Assembly (NCBI RefSeq): GCF_051020825.1
Contig: NZ_JAXGFQ010000009.1
Location: forward strand, 42,387 to 66,386
Length of the DNA stretch: 24,000 nucleotides
Direction of reading: 5' to 3'
DNA from: Moorella naiadis (nom. illeg.)
GTDB lineage: Bacteria > Bacillota > DSM-521 > Neomoorellales > Neomoorellaceae
Shown piece after piece: positions 2,440-20,494 of this stretch. Every line of letters starts with the position of its first letter. The first letter of the stretch is position 1. The position numbers and the translations under genes are program-made. The notes under the pieces were generated by a model. That model was not told the origin of the DNA, did not search any database, and saw only the letters and a list, made by a program, of their open reading frames with translations.

Positions 2440-2535
2440 TATGGTGCCAGATCACGAATTAATTATGTTACTGTTCGCTGGAACTATGCTCGCCGGTTTA
2501 TGACCAACTGGTGCAGGCTTGACGGGGGTAGTATC

Positions 2536-3090
2536 ATGGGGGTCTCCGAATCCGTTCCCGGTACTGGCCCGGGTGCTCCTGGGCTGAATAACTACCAGCA
2601 ACAGCTAGAGTACCTCATGCGCCGTTTCGGCGACAAGGTCCTCTACCTGGCTTACTCTTACCTCCATGACCGCTACCTGGCCGAAGACGTGGCCCAGGAG
2701 GTTTTTATCCGGGTTTATACCAACCTGGATAAATTTCAGGGCCGCAGCTCTATCTATACCTGGATCTATCACATCACCGTCAACCTCTGCCGTGACTACC
2801 TGCGGGCCCAGAGCCGGCGGCGCCTGGAGCCGAATAGGTTATTGGAGGTTGCCGTCCCGGATGTTGAGGCTATGGCCCTGGCCAACCTCGAGTACCGGGA
2901 ATTATGGCAGGCTATTTTACAGCTTCCTGTGACCTACCGCGAGGTAATCTGGCTACACTACTACGACCAGTTAAGCCTGAAAGATATAGCAGCTATACTG
3001 GACATTTCCCTGGCAGCGGTAAAGATCCGCCTATATCGCGCCCGGCAACGGCTGCAACAGGTTTTAAAGGTGGGTGACCAAGTTGAATAA
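2536..3090 (+). CDS. ECF-type RNA polymerase sigma-70 factor
   Basis: Region 2 is AEDVAQEVFIRVYTNLDKFQGRSSIYTWIYHITVNLCRDYLR. Region 4 helix-turn-helix is LSLKDIAAILDISLAAVKIRLYRARQRL. I prefer the ATG at 2536 (GGGGGT 8 nt upstream) over the track's 2500, which has no SD. The start is uncertain. Confidence 0.8.
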   Translation: MGVSESVPGTGPGAPGLNNYQQQLEYLMRRFGDKVLYLAYSYLHDRYLAEDVAQEVFIRVYTNLDKFQGRSSIYTWIYHITVNLCRDYLRAQSRRRLEPNRLLEVAVPDVEAMALANLEYRELWQAILQLPVTYREVIWLHYYDQLSLKDIAAILDISLAAVKIRLYRARQRLQQVLKVGDQVE

Positions 3091-3781
3091 GCATAAGGAT
3101 CAACTTGAGGAACTGCTGGCCGGACTACCAACCCATACGCCGCCGCCCCTGGCCGGCTGGCACTTCTCAGCGGACCTGCGCCAACAAGTACAAAAGCGGG
3201 CAGCCTCATTACAGGACTCACCGCAGGACCAGATCCATCAAGCAGGCAACGGGGGGGGTTGCGGCGGCGCTATTCCCGGATTGACTATACCGGTACTGGC
3301 TTGCTCCTCCCCCAAGAAAGTTTCCCCGGGTCTCTTGTGCCGGTTACGGCATTTCCGGCCGGGCCTAGTTGCAGGCCTGATTGTAATATTTGTTTTGCTG
3401 GCCTGGTGGTATCGACCGTGGGATGGCAACTACTGGTCAGAGGTACCCGGCGGGCCGCCGGCGGGTTTCCAGGTCAAACCCATCCAGTACCAGTGGGTTA
3501 ATCTGAATGACCCCTACCGGGAAGCTGTAGTCAGCATTGGCAGGGTGGCAGGCTCCAACCAGCTCCTGGCGGCTATAAGTAAACGACGGGAACCGGCGGG
3601 CTGGCAACTGATTTATACCCAGCCCTTGAACGCTTACCTGGTGCTGCCGGTAAAGGTAGTCCACGCTAACGCTAACCAGGTTACCCTGATCCTCATCGCT
3701 TATCAGGAACAGCAGGAGGAGGGTTACCGTTACCTAATCCTCAGCTTTGATGGTGAAAGGGTAATACCATATAACCAGTAA
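3074..3781 (+). CDS. Putative membrane-anchored anti-sigma factor
   Basis: The GTG start overlaps the sigma gene stop by 17 nt, suggesting translational coupling. A single hydrophobic span (LVAGLIVIFVLLAWW) separates a short N-terminal cytoplasmic part from an extracytoplasmic domain. The call rests on position and topology only; I recognised no family motif. Confidence 0.5.
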   Translation: MTKLNKHKDQLEELLAGLPTHTPPPLAGWHFSADLRQQVQKRAASLQDSPQDQIHQAGNGGGCGGAIPGLTIPVLACSSPKKVSPGLLCRLRHFRPGLVAGLIVIFVLLAWWYRPWDGNYWSEVPGGPPAGFQVKPIQYQWVNLNDPYREAVVSIGRVAGSNQLLAAISKRREPAGWQLIYTQPLNAYLVLPVKVVHANANQVTLILIAYQEQQEEGYRYLILSFDGERVIPYNQ

Positions 3782-6323: not shown

Positions 6324-7328
6324 ATGGCACGCTGGCAGGATAGAGTAGAGGACTGGCTGGCCTGGTGGCGGCAGCAGGAGTGGTTCAGCGGCGGTCTGCG
6401 GGCTGTTTTCCAGAAGGAACTGGCTGATAACCTGGGCAGCACCCGCTTTACCATCCTCTTCCTCCTAGTGGCTATTGCCGGTATCAGCGCCTTTTATGTC
6501 GCGGCCCAAAGCATCCGCCAGGCGGTAGGTCAGGAGAATTCCCATTTTGTCTTCCTGCGCCTCTTTACAACCAGCGGCAGGAACCTACCGCCCTTTATAA
6601 CTTTTATCTCTTTTCTGGGCCCGTTGCTGGGACTGGCCTTGGGTTTCGATGCCATTAACGGCGAGCACAATAAACGCACCTTGAGCCGGCTCCTGGCCCA
6701 GCCCATTTACCGAGATGATGTAATAAATGGTAAGTTCCTGGCGGGACTGACGGTTTTGGCCCTAGTCATTCTGGCCCTGGGATTTCTAGTGGCCGGCCTA
6801 GGACTCCTTTTGCTTGGCGTCCCGCCGACAGGGGAGGAACTGGGCCGACTCCTCATTTATCTCCTGGTGACTATTATCTATGTGTCTTTCTGGTTGAGCG
6901 TCTCCCTGCTCTTTTCCCTGTTATTCCGCCAGAATGCCACCTCAGCCCTGGCGGGCATCGCCGTCTGGCTCTTTTTCGCCCTCTTTGCCGGCATGCTGGT
7001 AGGCCTTATTGCCGACGGCCTTTTCCCGGCCAATCAAAACTCCCCGCCACAGCAGATCCTGCATAACGCCACTTTGAAGCAGGACCTGGGCCGCCTTTCG
7101 CCGACGACCCTTTACGATGAAGCCACCATCACCCTGCTCAATCCGGGGGTGCGCACCCTGGGGCCGGTATTAGTCCAGCAGCTGGAGGGGGCCATCCCGG
7201 GCAGCCTGCCCCTTGACCAGAGCCTACTCCTTATATGGCCCCACCTGGTCGGGCTGATCGCGGCTACCCTGCTTATTTTCGCCCTGGCCTATTACTTCTT
7301 CATGCGCCAGGAGATCCGGGCCGGGTGA
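6324..7328 (+). CDS. ABC-2-type transporter permease
   Basis: 334 aa with several hydrophobic spans and a large first loop, typical of ABC-2 permeases partnered with the preceding ATPase. The RBS GGGAGG precedes the ATG. Confidence 0.75.
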   Translation: MARWQDRVEDWLAWWRQQEWFSGGLRAVFQKELADNLGSTRFTILFLLVAIAGISAFYVAAQSIRQAVGQENSHFVFLRLFTTSGRNLPPFITFISFLGPLLGLALGFDAINGEHNKRTLSRLLAQPIYRDDVINGKFLAGLTVLALVILALGFLVAGLGLLLLGVPPTGEELGRLLIYLLVTIIYVSFWLSVSLLFSLLFRQNATSALAGIAVWLFFALFAGMLVGLIADGLFPANQNSPPQQILHNATLKQDLGRLSPTTLYDEATITLLNPGVRTLGPVLVQQLEGAIPGSLPLDQSLLLIWPHLVGLIAATLLIFALAYYFFMRQEIRAG

Positions 7329-7461
7329 TGTTTGCTATTTTGCTATAATCTCTTTTCCCAGGAGACGGAGCGAAACGCAAGCGAAGCGAAGGGAAACCTA
7401 ACCTGCCGGGGGCCTGAGGGGATTTCCACGGGTTATAGCGGCCGGCAGAATAAGAGAATGA

Positions 7462-7491
7462 GGACAGCAAAATTAGCTGCCCTCGTTTTTT
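7462..7491 (+). terminator. Weak Rho-independent terminator, probable end of the ABC operon
   Basis: ggacagc-aaaatta-gctgccc forms an imperfect stem (4 bp, one mismatch, 2 bp), followed by tcg and T6. Confidence 0.35.
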
Positions 7492-7531
7492 ATGATTATA
7501 TTTACGGCTTAAAAATTTAATACAGGTTATT

Positions 7532-7560
7532 GGAGGATTTAGGTAAACTATGTCGAAATA
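7532..7560 (+). promoter_or_regulatory. Sigma-H (Spo0H)-like promoter motif, copy A
   Basis: ggAGGATTT, an 11-nt spacer, then gtcGAAAta. The remembered consensus is RnAGGAwWW-N11-12-RnnGAATww, so there is one mismatch in the -10 (GAAA instead of GAAT). Confidence 0.4.
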
Positions 7561-7630
7561 CGAAAAAAATAGTATCCAATAAAGGAGCCAAGGCAATGTT
7601 ATATATCTCAATAAATACCATAAATTCCCT

Positions 7631-7647
7631 GGGGGGGGGGGGGGGGG
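7631..7647 (+). repeat. Homopolymeric G17 tract
   Basis: I counted 17 consecutive G. The flanks (ccct / ATATTTTACCA) are conserved with copy B. Confidence 0.95.
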
Positions 7648-7927
7648 ATATTTTACCACCCCCACCAGAAAAAACAACTACCTTATAGTTATATTATCAT
7701 CCCCCTCTTTCTCTTTTGCTATTTTTATCTATCTTGTGATTCCTCCAGCCTGTCTTGCGATCTGGGGCCGCAAGACCCTATCTTACCATATACCCCCTCC
7801 CCTCTTTATCTTCCAGGTGATTTATTACGTTTACGATCGTTACGCTCGCCACCATTCCTCTGATCAGGGTTGCCTTATTACCTTCAGCTGCAAGTGATAA
7901 TTACCGCGGCTTACAGGAGGCAATGCC

Positions 7928-7990
7928 ATGAGCAGAGGCCTATTGGAGATGGGAGTCACTAAAGTGCGCCTCAGCAGCAAAGAAATCTAA
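7928..7990 (+). pseudogene. 20-codon remnant of an HD-GYP gene 5' end (may act as a uORF)
   Basis: AGGAGG is followed 8 nt later by an ATG. The peptide MSRGLLEMGVTKVRLSSKEI* aligns with the N-terminus of the HD-GYP protein at 19484 (MSKDSSFMGARIVPRLTINY), and nucleotide homology continues upstream. It stops 15 nt before the CheY start. Confidence 0.5.
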
Positions 7991-15369: not shown

Positions 15370-15398
15370 TTGACGGCAAGAAGGGGGACTTCTATAAT
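15370..15398 (+). promoter_or_regulatory. Sigma-A-type promoter of the stressosome operon
   Basis: TTGACG (15370-15375), a 17-nt spacer, then TATAAT (15393-15398), with the same upstream ggtaaaattttc as at 9690. Confidence 0.7.
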
Positions 15399-15437
15399 TA
15401 CCTTGTCTATTAATGTCAAATTAAGGAGGAAAAAGTC

Positions 15438-16256
15438 GTGGGTGTGTTCGGTGAAATCGAACCAGAAACTATTATCAATGCTGCCATTGAACTCTTAAAA
15501 AAAGAGGGACGGGTCGACCTGCAATGGAACGAGATTTCCGCTTTAACCCGAGACCTTTGCCTGGCCCTGGCGGCAGATATTGAGCAGCCCGCTTTTACGA
15601 CGGCGGAGCTGGAGAAAGAAATCACAGATAAAGTTAAGCTACTCTTTGCCCGGGGTTACCATATTGAAAACCTCCAGCTAATATTGGAAAAAATTCTGGA
15701 TAGCTTTATCGGGACTTTACAGGATCAGGGTACCGATCTCCAGGCAGCAGTACCTTATATAAGCACTGTGCGGGAACATATCTTTAAAGGAACGACCTTC
15801 TTGTTACGAACAGCCCTACAGACCCAGCGCGAGGTTATCGAGAAGCAAAACGAAGCTTTAATGGAGCTGTCTACTCCGGTCATCCCTTTAATGCAGGACA
15901 TCCTTTTGCTGCCGTTAATCGGCACCATCGATACCCGCCGGGCCAAAGAGATAATGGATAATCTCTTAGCAGGCATCGTCCAATACCAGGCCGAGGTTGC
16001 CCTGATCGACATCAGCGGCGTGCCGGTGGTAGATACCCAGGTAGCCCATCACTTGATCAAAACCGTCAAGGCCGCCAGGCTTTTAGGCAGCCGCTGTATC
16101 TTAGTCGGCATCAGGCCGGAACTGGCCCAGACAATTGTCCGCCTGGGGATTGACTTCCAGGATATTATCACTAAAAACAACCTCCAGGCCGGGCTGGTAC
16201 TGGCTTTTCGCTGGCTGGGTTATAAGCTGGAGCGGGTGGAACGGGATGATGCATAA
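15438..16256 (+). CDS. rsbR: RsbR-like stressosome sensor protein (N-terminal sensor domain plus C-terminal STAS)
   Basis: The C-terminal STAS domain reads TPVIPLMQDILLLPLIGTIDTRRAKEIMDNLL...ALIDISGVPVVDTQVAHHLIKTVKAARLLGSRCILVGIRPELAQTIVRLGI. AAGGAGG lies 9 nt upstream of the GTG start. Confidence 0.85.
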   Translation: MGVFGEIEPETIINAAIELLKKEGRVDLQWNEISALTRDLCLALAADIEQPAFTTAELEKEITDKVKLLFARGYHIENLQLILEKILDSFIGTLQDQGTDLQAAVPYISTVREHIFKGTTFLLRTALQTQREVIEKQNEALMELSTPVIPLMQDILLLPLIGTIDTRRAKEIMDNLLAGIVQYQAEVALIDISGVPVVDTQVAHHLIKTVKAARLLGSRCILVGIRPELAQTIVRLGIDFQDIITKNNLQAGLVLAFRWLGYKLERVERDDA

Positions 16257-16620
16257 CCGGGTACCCATCCTTAAAGTAGATAATTTCTGGCTGGTGACCA
16301 TTGAAGAAACCCTTCACGACCAGAGTGTTATCCAGTTTAAGGAGGATTTATTATATAATATCACCCGGGATGCCGGCGCGGGCCTGGTGATTGATATCAG
16401 TGCCCTGGAAGTGGTGGACAGTTTCGTGACCAGGGTCCTCATGGAGATCGGCAGGCTGGCCGGGTTGCTGGGCCTGCCCTTTGTCCTGACGGGCATCAAC
16501 CCGGCGGTAGCCATTACTTTAACGGAGATGGGCCTGGATCTCCAGGGTATGGCCACGGCTTTGAACTTGCAAAAGGGCCTGGATATGTTAAAAGGTAGGG
16601 CCAGGGGGGAGCCAAAATGA
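16246..16620 (+). CDS. rsbS: RsbS-like single STAS-domain stressosome scaffold/antagonist
   Basis: MMHNRVPILKVDNFWLVTIEETLHD...VIDISALEVVDSFVTRVLMEIGRLAGLLGLPFVLTGINPAVAITL. The ATGATG at 16246 overlaps the rsbR stop. The track's 16135 start would lie deep inside rsbR. Confidence 0.85.
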   Translation: MMHNRVPILKVDNFWLVTIEETLHDQSVIQFKEDLLYNITRDAGAGLVIDISALEVVDSFVTRVLMEIGRLAGLLGLPFVLTGINPAVAITLTEMGLDLQGMATALNLQKGLDMLKGRARGEPK

Positions 16621-17024
16621 CATCTGGGCAAACCCTCCCCATCACCAGCGAATATGATATAATTACGGCCCGGCAGGCAGCCCGGGAACTGGCCCGGCAA
16701 ATAGGCTTCAACACAGTGGACCAGGTGCGGATAGCCACGGCCGTCTCGGAACTGACTCGCAACGTGATCCTTTACGCCGGTTCCGGCAAGGTGGATATAG
16801 AAGCGGTAGCCGAGGGAGAACGCCAGGGCATCGTGATTACCGTCAGCGACCGAGGGCCAGGCATCGCCGATATCGAGCAGGCTTTAAGGGACGGCTATTC
16901 GACCAGTAATGGCCTGGGTGCGGGCCTCTCTGGAGCTAAGCGACTAATGGATACCTTTGACATAGAATCCCGGGCCGGCCGGGGTACCACTATCAGGATT
17001 GGGAAGTGGAAGCACTGGAAGTAG
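16617..17024 (+). CDS. rsbT: RsbT-like serine/threonine kinase (GHKL ATPase)
   Basis: 135 aa with N box SELTRNVILYA and G boxes DRGPGI and GLGAGLSGAKRLMD. The ATGA overlap couples it to rsbS. Confidence 0.85.
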   Translation: MTSGQTLPITSEYDIITARQAARELARQIGFNTVDQVRIATAVSELTRNVILYAGSGKVDIEAVAEGERQGIVITVSDRGPGIADIEQALRDGYSTSNGLGAGLSGAKRLMDTFDIESRAGRGTTIRIGKWKHWK

Positions 17025-17584
17025 GAATTTATACCCGGGCCAGGGAAGGGGAATTCACCTGCGGTGATGCCTGCCTGGTCAAGGACGAAGCAGGTATTCT
17101 TAATCTGGCCGTAGTTGACGGTATTGGCCACGGACCAGAAGCCGCCCGGGCTGCGGCTGAAGCTATTGCTTGCCTGGAAACCGGCCTGGATGTCGGCCTG
17201 GAAAATATATTCCGGCGTTGTCATCAAAGGTTAATAGGGACCAGGGGAGCCGTTGCCGCCCTGTGCCAGGTTGATAAAAAAGGGGGCCTTTGGCAGGCAG
17301 CCGTTGTAGGTAATATCCTTTTACAGATCCTGGCCGGCAAGATAGTAACCCCTTTAACTACTCCTGGTATCCTGGGTTATAATTACCCGCGCCGGCTTTT
17401 AATTCATCGGGGGCCATATCAGGAGGGGGATCTTTTTTTAATCCACTCGGACGGTATTCAGGAAGGCGCGGTCTCTCCGGCCGCTTTAGTGAATTCCCCC
17501 CTTCCCCCGCAGGAACTGGCCCGGCTAATAGGGGAAGGTTACGGCCGCCGGGATGATGACGTCGCCGTTATAGTTGCCAGGTAA
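17006..17584 (+). CDS. rsbX: RsbX-like PP2C/SpoIIE-family phosphatase
   Basis: 192 aa with metal-binding Asp contexts CGDACLV, AVVDGIGHG, LIHSDGI and DDDVAVIVAR. The GTG start overlaps rsbT by 19 nt. Confidence 0.8.
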   Translation: MEALEVGIYTRAREGEFTCGDACLVKDEAGILNLAVVDGIGHGPEAARAAAEAIACLETGLDVGLENIFRRCHQRLIGTRGAVAALCQVDKKGGLWQAAVVGNILLQILAGKIVTPLTTPGILGYNYPRRLLIHRGPYQEGDLFLIHSDGIQEGAVSPAALVNSPLPPQELARLIGEGYGRRDDDVAVIVAR

Positions 17585-18900
17585 TGGAGGGCGAGCCCGC
17601 AATGGAAATAAAATGGCAGGAAGCCTACCTCGAGCTCTTACGGCAATATAGCCGGCAGCAGAGCGAAGCCATCCTCTATGAAGCCTCAAAATTGAGCAAA
17701 GCGCTGGTTGAGAGGGGCGTTGGTCCTGAAGATCTAGTCCAATTTCACTTGGAAGCCCTGGAAGGACTCTTCAGGGATATCTCCCCCTTGCGGGTACCGG
17801 GCCTGATTCTCATGTCCTTCGACCTGCTTCTGGAAGTAATGATGGCTTACGCCCTCAGTTTTCGGGAATACCTGGAGGTAAAAGATAAACTCATTGCGCG
17901 TCTGGAAACCTTTAATCAAGAATTAACTGCCGCCAACAGCAACCTGGAAACGAAAGTGCAAGAGCTTACGGTAATCCAGGATATGACCAGGGAATTGGGT
18001 GCCTGTTTGGACCTGGAGCTGACAGCCAGAATTATTACCCGGCACCTGCGGGAGCTGTTCCACTGCACCGGCGGATTGTACCTGGTCAATGGCAGCGGCG
18101 AATGGCAAGGTTATACCCTGGAAGAAACCCTGGTGCATAGTGCCCCGCCGGGAGATCTGGCAGCCGGAGCCAGACAATCGGCCAGGCTAGCAGGGCGAGA
18201 CTTGACCCTGCCCTTGGTCATCGGCCAGGAGGTTGGCGGCGCCGTCTTTTTACAAAAAGAAGGAGGATTTAGCGCCGACGAGGTCCGGTTGGCGGAGATC
18301 ATCGCCGGTTATGCCGCCTTGGCCGTTGAGCGCGCCCAGCTGTACGAAGCCATGAAACGCCAAGCCACCATTGACGCCAAGACGGGTTTATATAACTACC
18401 AGCATATGATGGAGTTGCTAGAAAAAGAGCTGGCCCGCGCCCGGCGTTACCAGCGTACCTTTACCTTAGCCATGCTCGATATCGATGACTTTAAGGTTTA
18501 TAACGACACTCACGGCCACCGGCAGGGAGACAAAACCCTCCAAAGAATAGCAGCCATCATCCAATCCAGCATCCGGGAGGTCGATATAGCAGCGCGTTAC
18601 GGCGGCGAAGAATTTGTCATGATCATGCCAGAAACTAATACCCTGGAAGCAACTGCTGTAACCGAAAGGGTACGCCGGAATATCATGAACGCCGCTATCG
18701 ATAATGAGGGCTGCGGTCCGGGCCGGGTGTTGACGGTGAGTATCGGGCTGGCCACCTACCCTCTGGATGCCGCCACAATCGGGGAGTTGATTGATGCTGC
18801 CGACAGCGCCCTCTACATGGCCAAGGCACAGGGGAAAAACACGGTCCGAGTGTTCGGTAAAGCTGACAGGTGGCGATCTGATAAGGAAAGGGTCTTTTAG
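17584..18900 (+). CDS. Diguanylate cyclase with RsbU_N-like, GAF and GGDEF domains
   Basis: The N-terminus resembles the RsbU N-terminal (RsbT-binding) helical domain: WQEAYLELLRQYSRQQSEAILYEASKLSKALVERGVGPEDLVQFHLEAL. A GAF-like middle follows. The GGDEF domain has TGLYNY, DIDDFKVYNDTHGH, an active-site GGEEF and an RxxD I-site (REVD) 5 residues upstream. The start is ATG 17584 (TAATG overlap) or ATG 17602 (GGAGGG 10 nt upstream). Confidence 0.9.
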   Translation: MEGEPAMEIKWQEAYLELLRQYSRQQSEAILYEASKLSKALVERGVGPEDLVQFHLEALEGLFRDISPLRVPGLILMSFDLLLEVMMAYALSFREYLEVKDKLIARLETFNQELTAANSNLETKVQELTVIQDMTRELGACLDLELTARIITRHLRELFHCTGGLYLVNGSGEWQGYTLEETLVHSAPPGDLAAGARQSARLAGRDLTLPLVIGQEVGGAVFLQKEGGFSADEVRLAEIIAGYAALAVERAQLYEAMKRQATIDAKTGLYNYQHMMELLEKELARARRYQRTFTLAMLDIDDFKVYNDTHGHRQGDKTLQRIAAIIQSSIREVDIAARYGGEEFVMIMPETNTLEATAVTERVRRNIMNAAIDNEGCGPGRVLTVSIGLATYPLDAATIGELIDAADSALYMAKAQGKNTVRVFGKADRWRSDKERVF

Positions 18901-19011: not shown

Positions 19012-19040
19012 GGAGGATTTAGGTAAAACGTGTCGAATAA
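19012..19040 (+). promoter_or_regulatory. Sigma-H (Spo0H)-like promoter motif, copy B
   Basis: ggAGGATTT, an 11-nt spacer, then gtcGAATaa. This is a full match to the remembered consensus RnAGGAwWW-N11-12-RnnGAATww. Confidence 0.5.
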
Positions 19041-19111
19041 AAAATATGCAATAAATACCAATAAAGAGGGCGAAATAATGCTATTAAGCCCCACTAATCC
19101 CAGTAACTTCC

Positions 19112-19125
19112 GGGGGGGGGGGGGG
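19112..19125 (+). repeat. Homopolymeric G14 tract
   Basis: I counted 14 consecutive G at the same position in the element as the G17 of copy A. Confidence 0.95.
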
Positions 19126-19483
19126 TATATTTTACCATCCCTACCAGAAAAAATAAATCCCCCATGCCTGGATGTATTCGTTTTTCCTTCCCTATGCTTC
19201 ATATCCGGCGCAAGAACTACTCCCTCAACGCTGCAAGCACCCTCCGGCCTGTCTGCTTACCCGCGGTTGCAAGGCCATATCTTGCCTTCTACCCGTGCTA
19301 ATTTCCCAAGCGCGGATCATTCCCTTTTACGCTCTTTATATCCTTTACGGTCGCCCCCTGGTCGAGACTACCCTCATAAGCACCGGCTGCTCTTAAACAC
19401 TATTACTTTACGCATCTTTAACCTAGATGTAGCATAGCAGCTGAAGTCAAACCTTTTAACATCGCACCCAGGGGGGTCTGGCC

Positions 19484-20494
19484 ATGAGCAAAGATAGTAG
19501 TTTTATGGGCGCAAGGATTGTTCCCAGATTAACAATCAACTATCTAGTCTTGCCAAACCCTACAGTGAGAATATTTTTACGGGGTACAGCTTTCCTTTTA
19601 TTAATGGTCGTTACGATGTTGAACTATCACGTTCGGAACCTGCCGGCCCAGATTATCATCGATTTTCTGTACCTTATTCCGATAACCGTAGCCGCAATGA
19701 ATTCCTTCATTGATGGCCTGGTAACCGCCCTGGCGGCAGGTTACCTGCGTCTCTTTATCAACCCGGTGACCTTTTCCTTCCTCAAAGCTACTGATTATGT
19801 TGATTTGATTATAGTTTTAGGCTTTTACCTGCTGGACCCCGTGCTGGTAGAACTATTAAGGCGTCTCGCCCGGCAGCGGCGACAACTGGGCCAAAACCTG
19901 TATATTACTACGGCCGCCCTGCTGGAGGCATTACATCTGCGTGACCAGTATACCGGCCGGCACTCGCGCCAGGTAGCTGGTTATGCCCGCCGGCTGGCCG
20001 CCGCTTTAGATTTACCCCGGGATTATCAAGAGAGCCTGTACCTGGCCGGATTACTCCATGACATCGGGAAAATTGGCATTAATGACGCCTGCTTGAATAA
20101 ACCAGGGCGGTTGACGCCGGAGGAATGGCAAGCTATCCGCCGCCACCCGCAGTTAAGCTACAATATAGTAAAAAAGGTTGATAAAATCGAAGAAGGGATT
20201 GCCCGGGCAGTCCTTTATCACCACGAACGCTATGACGGCCGGGGCTACCCCCAAGGGCTGAAGGGAGAGGCTATTCCCCTAGAAGCACGTATCTTAAGTG
20301 TAGCCGATTGCTATGACGCCATGACTACCAACCGGGTTTACCGGCCCGCCCTGACCCCGGTTGAGGCTGTCAGGGAGTTAAAGCGTTGCGCCGGTAGCCA
20401 GTTTGATCCGCAAATAGTGGATGTTTTTTGCCGTATCCTGGCCGCAGATGGTCTTAATCAAGATCATAAAGATAAAGCCCACGATCTTTGCTAA
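19484..20494 (+). CDS. Membrane-anchored HD-GYP domain protein (c-di-GMP phosphodiesterase type)
   Basis: The N-terminal part of about 120 aa is hydrophobic (several TM spans). The HD-GYP motifs are HDIGK and HHERYDGRGYP. The SD AGGGGGG lies 7 nt upstream of the ATG. Confidence 0.9.
   Translation: MSKDSSFMGARIVPRLTINYLVLPNPTVRIFLRGTAFLLLMVVTMLNYHVRNLPAQIIIDFLYLIPITVAAMNSFIDGLVTALAAGYLRLFINPVTFSFLKATDYVDLIIVLGFYLLDPVLVELLRRLARQRRQLGQNLYITTAALLEALHLRDQYTGRHSRQVAGYARRLAAALDLPRDYQESLYLAGLLHDIGKIGINDACLNKPGRLTPEEWQAIRRHPQLSYNIVKKVDKIEEGIARAVLYHHERYDGRGYPQGLKGEAIPLEARILSVADCYDAMTTNRVYRPALTPVEAVRELKRCAGSQFDPQIVDVFCRILAADGLNQDHKDKAHDLC

Follow-up and report, generated by a model that had tools for sequence, protein, structure and literature searches.

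A slippage-prone poly-G tract in a leader open reading frame: a candidate phase-variable switch upstream of cyclic di-GMP genes in Moorella and its relatives

Why would a bacterium keep long, pure G tracts in the leaders of second-messenger genes? The question is raised by a 24,000-nucleotide (nt) stretch of Moorella naiadis DNA (the window; contig NZ_JAXGFQ010000009.1, positions 42,387 to 66,386), in which two leaders, copies A and B, precede genes of cyclic di-GMP (c-di-GMP) signalling. Copy A contains a pure G17 tract at 7631-7647, and copy B a pure G14 tract at 19112-19125 (plus strand, as are all window features below unless stated otherwise). No other homopolymer in the window reaches 9 nt, and the window's composition predicts about 0.0008 G or C runs of at least 14 nt. 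Each tract begins 34-35 nt into an upstream open reading frame (uORF) with its own Shine-Dalgarno (SD) sequence and ATG: AAGGAG at 7582-7587, 8 nt 5' of the ATG at 7596, in copy A; and AAGAGGG at 19064-19070, separated by 7-8 nt from the ATG at 19078, in copy B. The answer proposed here, to which we assign a probability of about 40%, is that the tract is a hypermutable repeat within a translated uORF, and that this phase-variable uORF gates ribosome transit through a Rho-prone, SD-masking leader.

The two window copies illustrate how strongly the tract affects the reading frame. As assembled, the copy A uORF (7596-7688) comprises 30 codons plus TAG, with the tract at codons 12-18, and is translated as MLYISINTINSLGGGGGDILPPPPEKTTTL. 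With G16 it would encode 88 amino acids (aa), and with G18 100 aa, the latter version ending 33 nt 5' of the ATG at 7928. The copy B uORF as assembled (19078-19437; translation beginning MLLSPTNPSNFRGGGGYILPSLPEK) runs for 119 codons plus TAG and stops 49 nt 5' of the ATG of an HD-GYP gene; G13 would shorten it to 25 aa, and G15 to 74 aa. (The label mini-ORF, applied to both copies in an earlier note on this sequence, does not fit copy B.) The positions given there for tracts, SDs and ATGs were all reproduced, as were both translations and the offsets of ATATTTTACCA, which begins at 7648 in copy A and at 19127 in copy B, 52 and 49 nt from the respective ATGs; the two copies therefore share one register. 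The source is a draft assembly, in which runs of this kind are easily miscounted, so statements about frame rest on counts that may be off by 1.

Do such leaders occur elsewhere? Exact-protein look-ups of the window proteins gave no record, and orthologous loci were reached through homologues of the HD-GYP and response-regulator proteins. A shared cassette is present at about eight loci (10 assemblies) in M. naiadis, M. thermoacetica, Neomoorella humiferrea, N. glycerini, Thermanaeromonas toyohensis, and one metagenomic relative (genera Moorella, Neomoorella, and Thermanaeromonas). All G-tract copies have the same order of elements: a sigma-H-type promoter; an SD and ATG; 11-13 codons; the pure G tract; a (T)ATATTTTACC-like motif; a pyrimidine-rich, G-poor leader of 160-360 nt; and a G-rich SD preceding an HD-GYP c-di-GMP phosphodiesterase gene. 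Where the HD-GYP gene has decayed, a response regulator heads the downstream genes. The distance from ATG to tract is 33-39 nt, and in all copies a purine block resembling an SD lies 5-9 nt 5' of the uORF ATG. The conserved SD-and-ATG uORF with its embedded G tract, first noted in the two window copies, appears in every G-tract copy found, and its conservation in three genera strongly supports a real functional unit. Within the DNA examined, the tract is associated exclusively with c-di-GMP genes. Pattern scans were less informative: ATATTTTACCAYCCCYACCAG, an overly specific pattern, gave a single chance match in a genome collection, in a Bacteroidales metagenome-assembled genome; and GGGNATATTTTAN9CCAGAAAA gave 19 matches in metagenomes, all by chance and none with poly-G.

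Alignment of copies A and B identifies several conserved blocks, the first two of which fit the form of a sigma-H promoter. The criterion was RNAGGAWWW-N11-12-RNNGAATWW, with a -35 AGGA and a -10 GAAT at 17-18 nt spacing. Copy B (AGGATTTAGGTAAAACGTGTCGAATAA, 19014-19040) matches AGGAWWW-N11-RNNGAAWWW exactly and has a true GAAT -10 element; copy A (AGGATTTAGGTAAACTATGTCGAAATA, 7534-7560) has AGGA, a 17-nt spacer, and GAAA, and so deviates in the -10 element. The pattern AGGAWWW-N11-12-RNNGAAWWW occurs in the window at copies A and B only, against 0.03 occurrences expected, and the promoter is retained in most cassette copies. A SigH motif with the same two elements and spacing has been published for another acetogen, B. 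subtilis, and C. difficile (PMC12456013). A sigma-H-type promoter is predicted to drive both leaders.

After the tract, every G-tract copy has a variant of one motif: ATATTTTACCACCCCCACCAGAAAAAA in copy A (7648-7674) and ATATTTTACCATCCCTACCAGAAAAAA in copy B (19127-19153), which are 88% identical and give the consensus ATATTTTACCAyCCCyACCAGAAAAAA. The pyrimidine-rich, G-poor leader follows, at 7675-7912 in copy A, with a candidate anti-SD sequence (GUUGCCUU) inside 7869-7896, and at 19154-19464 in copy B, with a C-rich anti-SD block (CGGUCGCCCCCUGGU) at 19348-19362. The two leaders contain the strongest C>G skews of the 24 kb (250-nt windows 7651-7900, skew -0.41, z -4.1; and 19131-19380, skew -0.37, z -3.8). 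Their base composition (C 0.31-0.35, G 0.13-0.16) agrees with that of a Rho utilization (rut) region, taken here as 70-80 nt or more of RNA that is rich in C, poor in G, unstructured, and untranslated, and the leaders show no excess structure; C-rich, G-poor RNA is the composition that Rho prefers. In copy B the leader ends at the G-rich SD region of the HD-GYP gene (CACCCAGGGGGGTCT, 19465-19479). A GGGGG(C) block 8-11 nt 5' of the start codon is conserved in 11 of the 11 leaders compared.

What becomes of a ribosome that has passed the tract? For each leader, the uORF was computed with the tract at its assembled length n and at n-1 and n+1. Each leader has one register that remains open for about 60-120 codons (80-100% of the leader). 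This register stops 24-72 nt 5' of the main start codon, except that in the M. thermoacetica leader L006 it has a 32-nt overlap with that start. The remaining registers close sooner, usually 3-12 codons past the tract (20-30 codons in total), with a second fairly long register, reaching 57-71 codons past the tract, in naiA, naiB, and theA. Open runs this long are uncommon when the leaders are shuffled: dinucleotide-preserving shuffles of each leader give P values of 0.02-0.17 per leader, and a combined P of 8e-5 (5e-4 for the six least redundant leaders); the combined P from mononucleotide shuffles is 0.001. The long register differs between copies in its relation to the ATATTTTACC motif, and the peptides that it encodes are unrelated. 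The conserved feature of the post-tract frame is openness, not a protein: a conserved product of the long uORFs was considered and rejected, and the 121-aa M. thermoacetica uORF product, compared with 5.8 billion proteins, matched its own strain variant only. The frame match between copies A and B, remarked on earlier, holds for those two copies and is not a family property; across the family, all three registers relative to the motif are in use.

Before the tract, the situation is different. The uORF N-termini are alike across genera (MLYISINTINSL-G5-DILP, MLCYSINAINFLN-G4-YIIP, and MLYGINGIFPN-G3), and the pre-tract codons of naiA and T. toyohensis show synonymous changes (TTA/CTA, TCA/TCC, and CTG/CTA). 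Peptide-like N-terminal codons with several synonymous differences support translation of the uORF. The N-terminus MK(D/E)Q...ANKCQ sets the uORFs of N. humiferrea and N. glycerini apart from these.

Uninterrupted mononucleotide repeats of about 8 nt or more exceed the slippage threshold taken to mark a contingency locus, and across copies the tracts measure 8, 12, 13, 13/14, 14, 16/19, 17, and 23 nt. One locus has G19 in M. thermoacetica CP136551 (L006) and G16 in CP136416 (L031), a strain about 2-3% diverged. In N. humiferrea CP136419 (L003), G23 lies 5' of an HD-GYP gene (humA) and G14 lies 5' of a small ORF and cheW (humB). N. glycerini (L032) has G13, T. toyohensis (L035) G12, the metagenomic relative of Thermanaeromonas (L008 and L009) G8, and a groESL-adjacent paralog on a Logan contig (L011) at least G16. 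The groESL-adjacent paralog in M. thermoacetica CP017237 (L002) has no tract and keeps the promoter together with a 21-codon uORF (MIENAVVTKINTNRGSISISL). Two pairs of assemblies differ by the tract only: G14 versus G13 is the sole difference in 3864 nt of N. humiferrea, and G12 versus at least G13 the sole difference in 4648 nt of T. toyohensis. In 118 kb of DNA from these genera, all homopolymers of 9 nt or more are these tracts, and every one is uninterrupted. Seven independent short-read contigs (from NCBI drafts and Logan assemblies) start in or right after a tract. The tracts thus systematically break Illumina assemblies, and tract lengths in public genomes need caution; the length differences and the contig breaks fit real heterogeneity or homopolymer sequencing error alike.

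A change of 1 nt shifts the uORF from about 25-30 aa to about 90-120 aa. A pure repeat above the threshold and length polymorphism between strains and assemblies (although the 1-nt differences may be sequencing errors) are both features of contingency loci. The earlier note called the tract slippage-prone and counted an invariant length among the signs against its idea; lengths vary, between strains and from 8 to 23 nt across species. That variation makes slipped-strand frame switching the best supported of the four ideas offered there. (One further G run lies in the window, G8 at 3251-3258, the only other G or C run of 7 nt or more. It falls within an unannotated 235-aa ORF without a Pfam match, at 3074-3781, just 3' of an ECF (extracytoplasmic function) sigma factor gene at 2500-3090. 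The ORF could encode an anti-sigma factor and bear a slippage-prone site.)

These features suggest a sequence of events. The sigma-H-type promoter, active at transition phase and at the onset of sporulation, would start the transcript about 30 nt before the SD and ATG, near 7565 in copy A and near 19045 in copy B. The ribosome would reach the G tract after 11-13 codons, and tract length modulo 3 would select which of the three registers is read past it. In the long register, the uORF would be open over the whole 160-360 nt leader, ending 24-72 nt before the G-rich SD and HD-GYP start or overlapping that start, so that less than about 70 nt of RNA would be naked; in the short registers, an early stop would leave up to about 330 nt of naked C-rich, G-poor RNA. 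We infer that long-register transit melts the pairing between the C-rich anti-SD and the SD and shields the leader from Rho or RNases (gene ON), and that in the short registers the gene is masked or prematurely terminated (gene OFF). With slippage of the tract in replication, possibly also in transcription or translation, the genes for c-di-GMP turnover would be expressed in a stochastic and heritable manner. The likeliest reading is therefore of a switch, prone to slippage, that determines how much of the leader ribosomes traverse; control of this type has yet to be described in these bacteria.

How well does the leader RNA fit the SD-masking step? The only helix that RNAalifold keeps across copies joins the C-rich block (GCUCGCCCCCGG; 19348-19362 in copy B) to the conserved G-rich SD (19471-19476 in copy B). 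The copy B duplex, CCCCCUGG:CCAGGGGG, has a predicted energy of -19.6 kcal/mol (P = 0.09 against shuffles), and the copy A duplex is no better than shuffles. Masking of the SD by the C-rich block is suggestive.

Several observations weigh against the gating model. The consensus helix is weak (-1.1 kcal/mol, two covarying pairs), and the anti-SD duplexes beat shuffles in some copies only (P 0.01-0.65), about half being no better. The leaders are homologous, so the combined P values for the open register overstate independence. The long register is the one found in five of nine current assemblies (naiB, humB, both M. thermoacetica strains, and L008), a proportion no different from chance, so that a preference for it was rejected; copy A, humA, and N. 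glycerini sit in short registers. With its stop 24-72 nt 5' of the gene start, the uORF ends too far away to be tightly coupled to the gene's translation in the classical manner. Where assemblies of one strain disagree in tract length, sequencing error could be the reason. Finally, tracts of G17-23 are far beyond those of typical contingency loci (8-13), and at that length switching would be so fast that there may be no heritable states.

Other roles for the tract must be weighed against this model. The tract might act purely as RNA, a templated poly-G that mimics an SD, or a structure, and competes with the G-rich SD for the C-rich anti-SD and CCUCC-like stretches, or forms a G-quadruplex; its length would then tune translation or stability in a graded way, with no frame switch, and the uORF would control access to the tract only. 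The G tract, C-rich leader blocks, and G-rich SD do co-occur in the G-tract copies, minimum-energy folds pair the tract with CU-rich stretches, the high growth temperature of Moorella would favour stable G:C-rich or quadruplex elements, and pyrG of B. subtilis and hmw1A of H. influenzae, compared below, are precedents. However, whole-leader folds are no better than those of shuffled sequence (z -1.0, -0.5, and -0.05), in most copies the uORF-plus-tract segment folds less well locally than its shuffles do (z up to +1.9), and no covarying helix involving the tract was found, so the pairing of the G run with particular C/U stretches raised in the earlier note is not supported. Nor does its proposed RNA G-quadruplex extend to the family. 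A three-tier intramolecular quadruplex (four G3 runs with loops) requires a homopolymer of at least 15 nt, possible for G16, G17, G19, and G23 and impossible for G8, G12, G13, and G14, which includes copy B. The stop-codon-free register is also left unexplained, and the RNA-level reading is doubtful. Unlikely, too, is the absence of any function, the tract being a product of runaway replication slippage from an ancestral GGG-GGG-GG in a weakly constrained leader, and tolerated since the cell can dispense with the uORF. A more distant relative has only G8, one M. thermoacetica paralog lost its tract and kept promoter and uORF, registers in current assemblies appear random, and copy A drives a decayed gene remnant. 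Yet long homopolymers normally decay or become interrupted, and 10 of 10 tracts are uninterrupted, in lineages whose downstream gene products have diverged by about 35%; the SD, ATG, tract spacing, and post-tract motif are conserved between genera, and the open register is kept beyond compositional expectation.

Two further possibilities place the sensor in the polymerase or in the nascent chain. Adding 12-23 successive G residues might make transcription responsive to GTP, so that low GTP at the onset of sporulation causes pausing, slippage, or termination and ties GTP supply to phosphodiesterase synthesis. The exclusive association with c-di-GMP genes in the DNA examined, the link of a sigma-H-type promoter to the transition state, the U-rich AUAUUUU after the tract, and the established nucleotide-sensitive reiterative transcription of pyrG and pyrBI speak for such a sensor. 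It is nevertheless very unlikely: the tract lies about 65-80 nt 3' of the predicted start, whereas known sensing of nucleoside triphosphates acts at +1; cellular GTP far exceeds the elongation Km for these substrates; a terminator hairpin finds no support; and the conserved SD and ATG and the open register are unexplained. There is a similarly small chance that templated poly-G senses the guanine-nucleotide economy directly at the level of RNA or transcription (GTP, or c-di-GMP itself), through a length-dependent quadruplex, poly-G:poly-C/U pairing, or GTP-dependent polymerase transit. If so, it would provide feedback onto c-di-GMP phosphodiesterase synthesis, with tract length as the threshold for each lineage, and would represent a new class of leaders that sense nucleotides and have no relation to riboswitch aptamers. 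An arrest peptide is highly improbable. Here, the nascent chain (ML.SIN.IN.L-Gly(n)-[YD]I[IL]P...) or the GGG codons would stall the ribosome and remodel the leader, as in ermC, secM, and mifM; the similar N-terminal peptide between genera, with several synonymous differences, and PPPP after the tract in copy A accord with this. But the peptide after the tract depends on the register and shows no conservation, PPPP is confined to copy A (the Gly-Pro stalling peptide suggested earlier is not a conserved feature), N. humiferrea and N. glycerini have a different N-terminus, and the use of GGG only, with no mixed glycine codons, points to a nucleotide-level feature.

Some familiar arrangements were considered and rejected. 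Promoter-spacer phase variation does not apply, as the tract sits 3' of the promoter and of the SD and ATG. A minus-strand ORF at 7300-7677, which would read the tract as poly-Pro, has no counterpart of at least 80 aa on that strand in copy B. Glycine leader-peptide attenuation is at odds with downstream genes for c-di-GMP signalling, not glycine metabolism, and with the lack of a terminator. A search of the leaders for an intrinsic-terminator attenuator (a stable GC-rich hairpin with a U tract) returned only artefacts that used the tract itself. An Rfam covariance search at gathering and permissive thresholds gave only sub-threshold noise below 20 bits in the leaders; the sole scorer was a c-di-GMP-I riboswitch at 8455-8542.

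That riboswitch belongs to the gene set downstream of copy A. The leader is followed by an SD (ACAGGAGGC) and a 20-codon ORF (MSRGLLEMGVTKVRLSSKEI), together at 7913-7990 with the ORF at 7928-7990, which aligns with the start of the copy B HD-GYP gene; on this alignment, the ORF is taken as the relic of a lost phosphodiesterase gene. N. glycerini has a similar relic (9813-9850 in L032), and T. toyohensis has the intact order of leader, HD-GYP gene, and response-regulator gene, which implies that copy A and N. glycerini are derivatives in which the phosphodiesterase gene has decayed to a short remnant. The first intact gene 3' of leader A encodes a REC-only response regulator (8006-8371; Pfam Response_reg, E = 1.4e-24), followed by the riboswitch, a Cu_amine_oxidN1 protein, a CHASE3 kinase, a response regulator, and an RR-HD-GYP protein. 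The riboswitch is full-length (84 bits, E = 1e-15), with a terminator-like stem-loop after it at 8573-8600, and lies between the response-regulator gene and the Cu_amine_oxidN1-domain gene (8627-9589); by this placement, one operon bears both a poly-G leader and a classical c-di-GMP riboswitch. Two REC-domain genes, at 8006-8371 and 11325-11753, are 72% identical in nucleotide sequence along about 270 nt (8085-8365 versus 11440-11720), which indicates a paralogous duplication inside the locus.

Leader B precedes the HD-GYP c-di-GMP phosphodiesterase gene (19484-20494; Pfam HD_5, E = 8e-44), an OmpR-type regulator gene, and a HAMP kinase gene. The HD-GYP protein, like the response regulator at 8006-8371, is 100% identical to M. 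naiadis proteins. Before leader B stands a stressosome-like RsbR/S/T/X set with an RsbU_N-GAF-GGDEF cyclase: at 15438-18900, genes for a STAS protein, an RsbT-like HATPase_c_2 kinase, and a SpoIIE/PP2C phosphatase, then the diguanylate cyclase. A stressosome-controlled cyclase thus adjoins a phosphodiesterase under a poly-G leader. Two 45-nt stretches at 9693-9737 and 15361-15405, 73% identical and each containing TTGACG-N17-TATAAT, look like paired sigma-A-type promoters, one 5' of the CHASE3 kinase operon (9892) and the other 5' of the STAS/RsbR-like gene (15438).

Differences among relatives extend to genes beside the leaders. In N. humiferrea (L003, 2843-5405), fliD adjoins the poly-G leader and is split by an insertion sequence element (HTH_Tnp_1 plus rve transposase); in the M. 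naiadis window, fliD is intact on the minus strand (13327-14610). The HD_5 gene 5' of the leader in M. thermoacetica (L031, 609-1383; L006, 1672-2556) is a single ORF in one strain and two in the other. Several indels separate the strains in this gene, one of them in a T run (TTTTTTTGA versus TTTTTTT-A), and the split gene is probably a strain-specific pseudogene.

If the gating model is correct, c-di-GMP turnover would be set stochastically and heritably in each lineage through HD-GYP phosphodiesterases and their partner response regulators. This second messenger controls whether cells are motile or sessile and probably contributes to sporulation decisions; the hosts are thermophilic spore formers, acetogens that serve in gas fermentation. 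Repeat-driven phase variation would be extended to a new group of bacteria, to second-messenger genes instead of surface antigens, and to a uORF gating a long leader. There is a practical side as well: short-read assemblies break at the tracts, finished genomes give them wrong lengths, and the long uORFs are labelled as hypothetical proteins by gene callers.

How do these leaders compare with known systems? None of the papers searched ties Moorella to phase variation or homopolymeric tracts in this sense, and none ties poly-G tracts to c-di-GMP genes. Leader ORFs are known to control Rho-dependent termination or the unmasking of an SD in mgtA/mgtL and corA of Salmonella, tnaC of E. coli, and ermC-type translational attenuation. 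As in the Moorella group, the leader is long and contains a short ORF that has an SD of its own, C-rich, G-poor RNA lies 3' of this ORF, an anti-SD pairs with the main SD, and the position of the ribosome on the leader is proposed to be decisive. In those systems, however, the ribosome is positioned by a metabolite, an amino acid, or an antibiotic; in the Moorella leader it would be positioned genetically, by repeat length, with a presumed role for Rho.

In B. subtilis pyrG, non-templated G residues are added at the 5' end of the transcript when CTP is low, pair with a CU-rich strand of the terminator, and block its hairpin. This is the nearest precedent for a leader poly-G able to pair with a downstream pyrimidine-rich segment, but in Moorella the G residues come from the template and lie internally, inside a uORF, and the leaders yielded no intrinsic terminator. 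The nearest precedent for a repeat acting in a 5' untranslated region (5'-UTR) is hmw1A of H. influenzae, in which a heptamer repeat is transcribed in a long 5'-UTR and its length sets expression post-transcriptionally (PMC12721329). There too, a simple-sequence repeat occupies a long leader with pyrimidine-rich and G-rich partner segments, the hmw1A repeat pairing with a G-rich arm. The hmw1A repeat, however, forms a defined long hairpin that is cut by RNase III (PMC12721329), whereas the Moorella repeat is a mononucleotide run in a uORF, for which no stable hairpin is supported.

The closest likeness is to the homopolymeric contingency loci: the poly-G/C tracts of Campylobacter jejuni, Neisseria, Haemophilus, and Helicobacter, and the poly-A tract of swrA in Bacillus subtilis. 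As proposed here, those loci have an uninterrupted mononucleotide repeat close to the 5' end of an ORF that is translated. In both cases the number of repeat units varies among strains or assemblies, and a 1-nt change alters frame and ORF length. Unlike those loci, the Moorella tract lies in the uORF of a long leader, not in an effector gene or between promoter hexamers; tracts in this group reach 17-23 nt; the targets are c-di-GMP phosphodiesterase and response-regulator genes; and switching is proposed here from sequence alone. By analogy, the tract in the leader ORF would work like a homopolymeric contingency locus, one that differs in placement, tract length, host group, and target genes.

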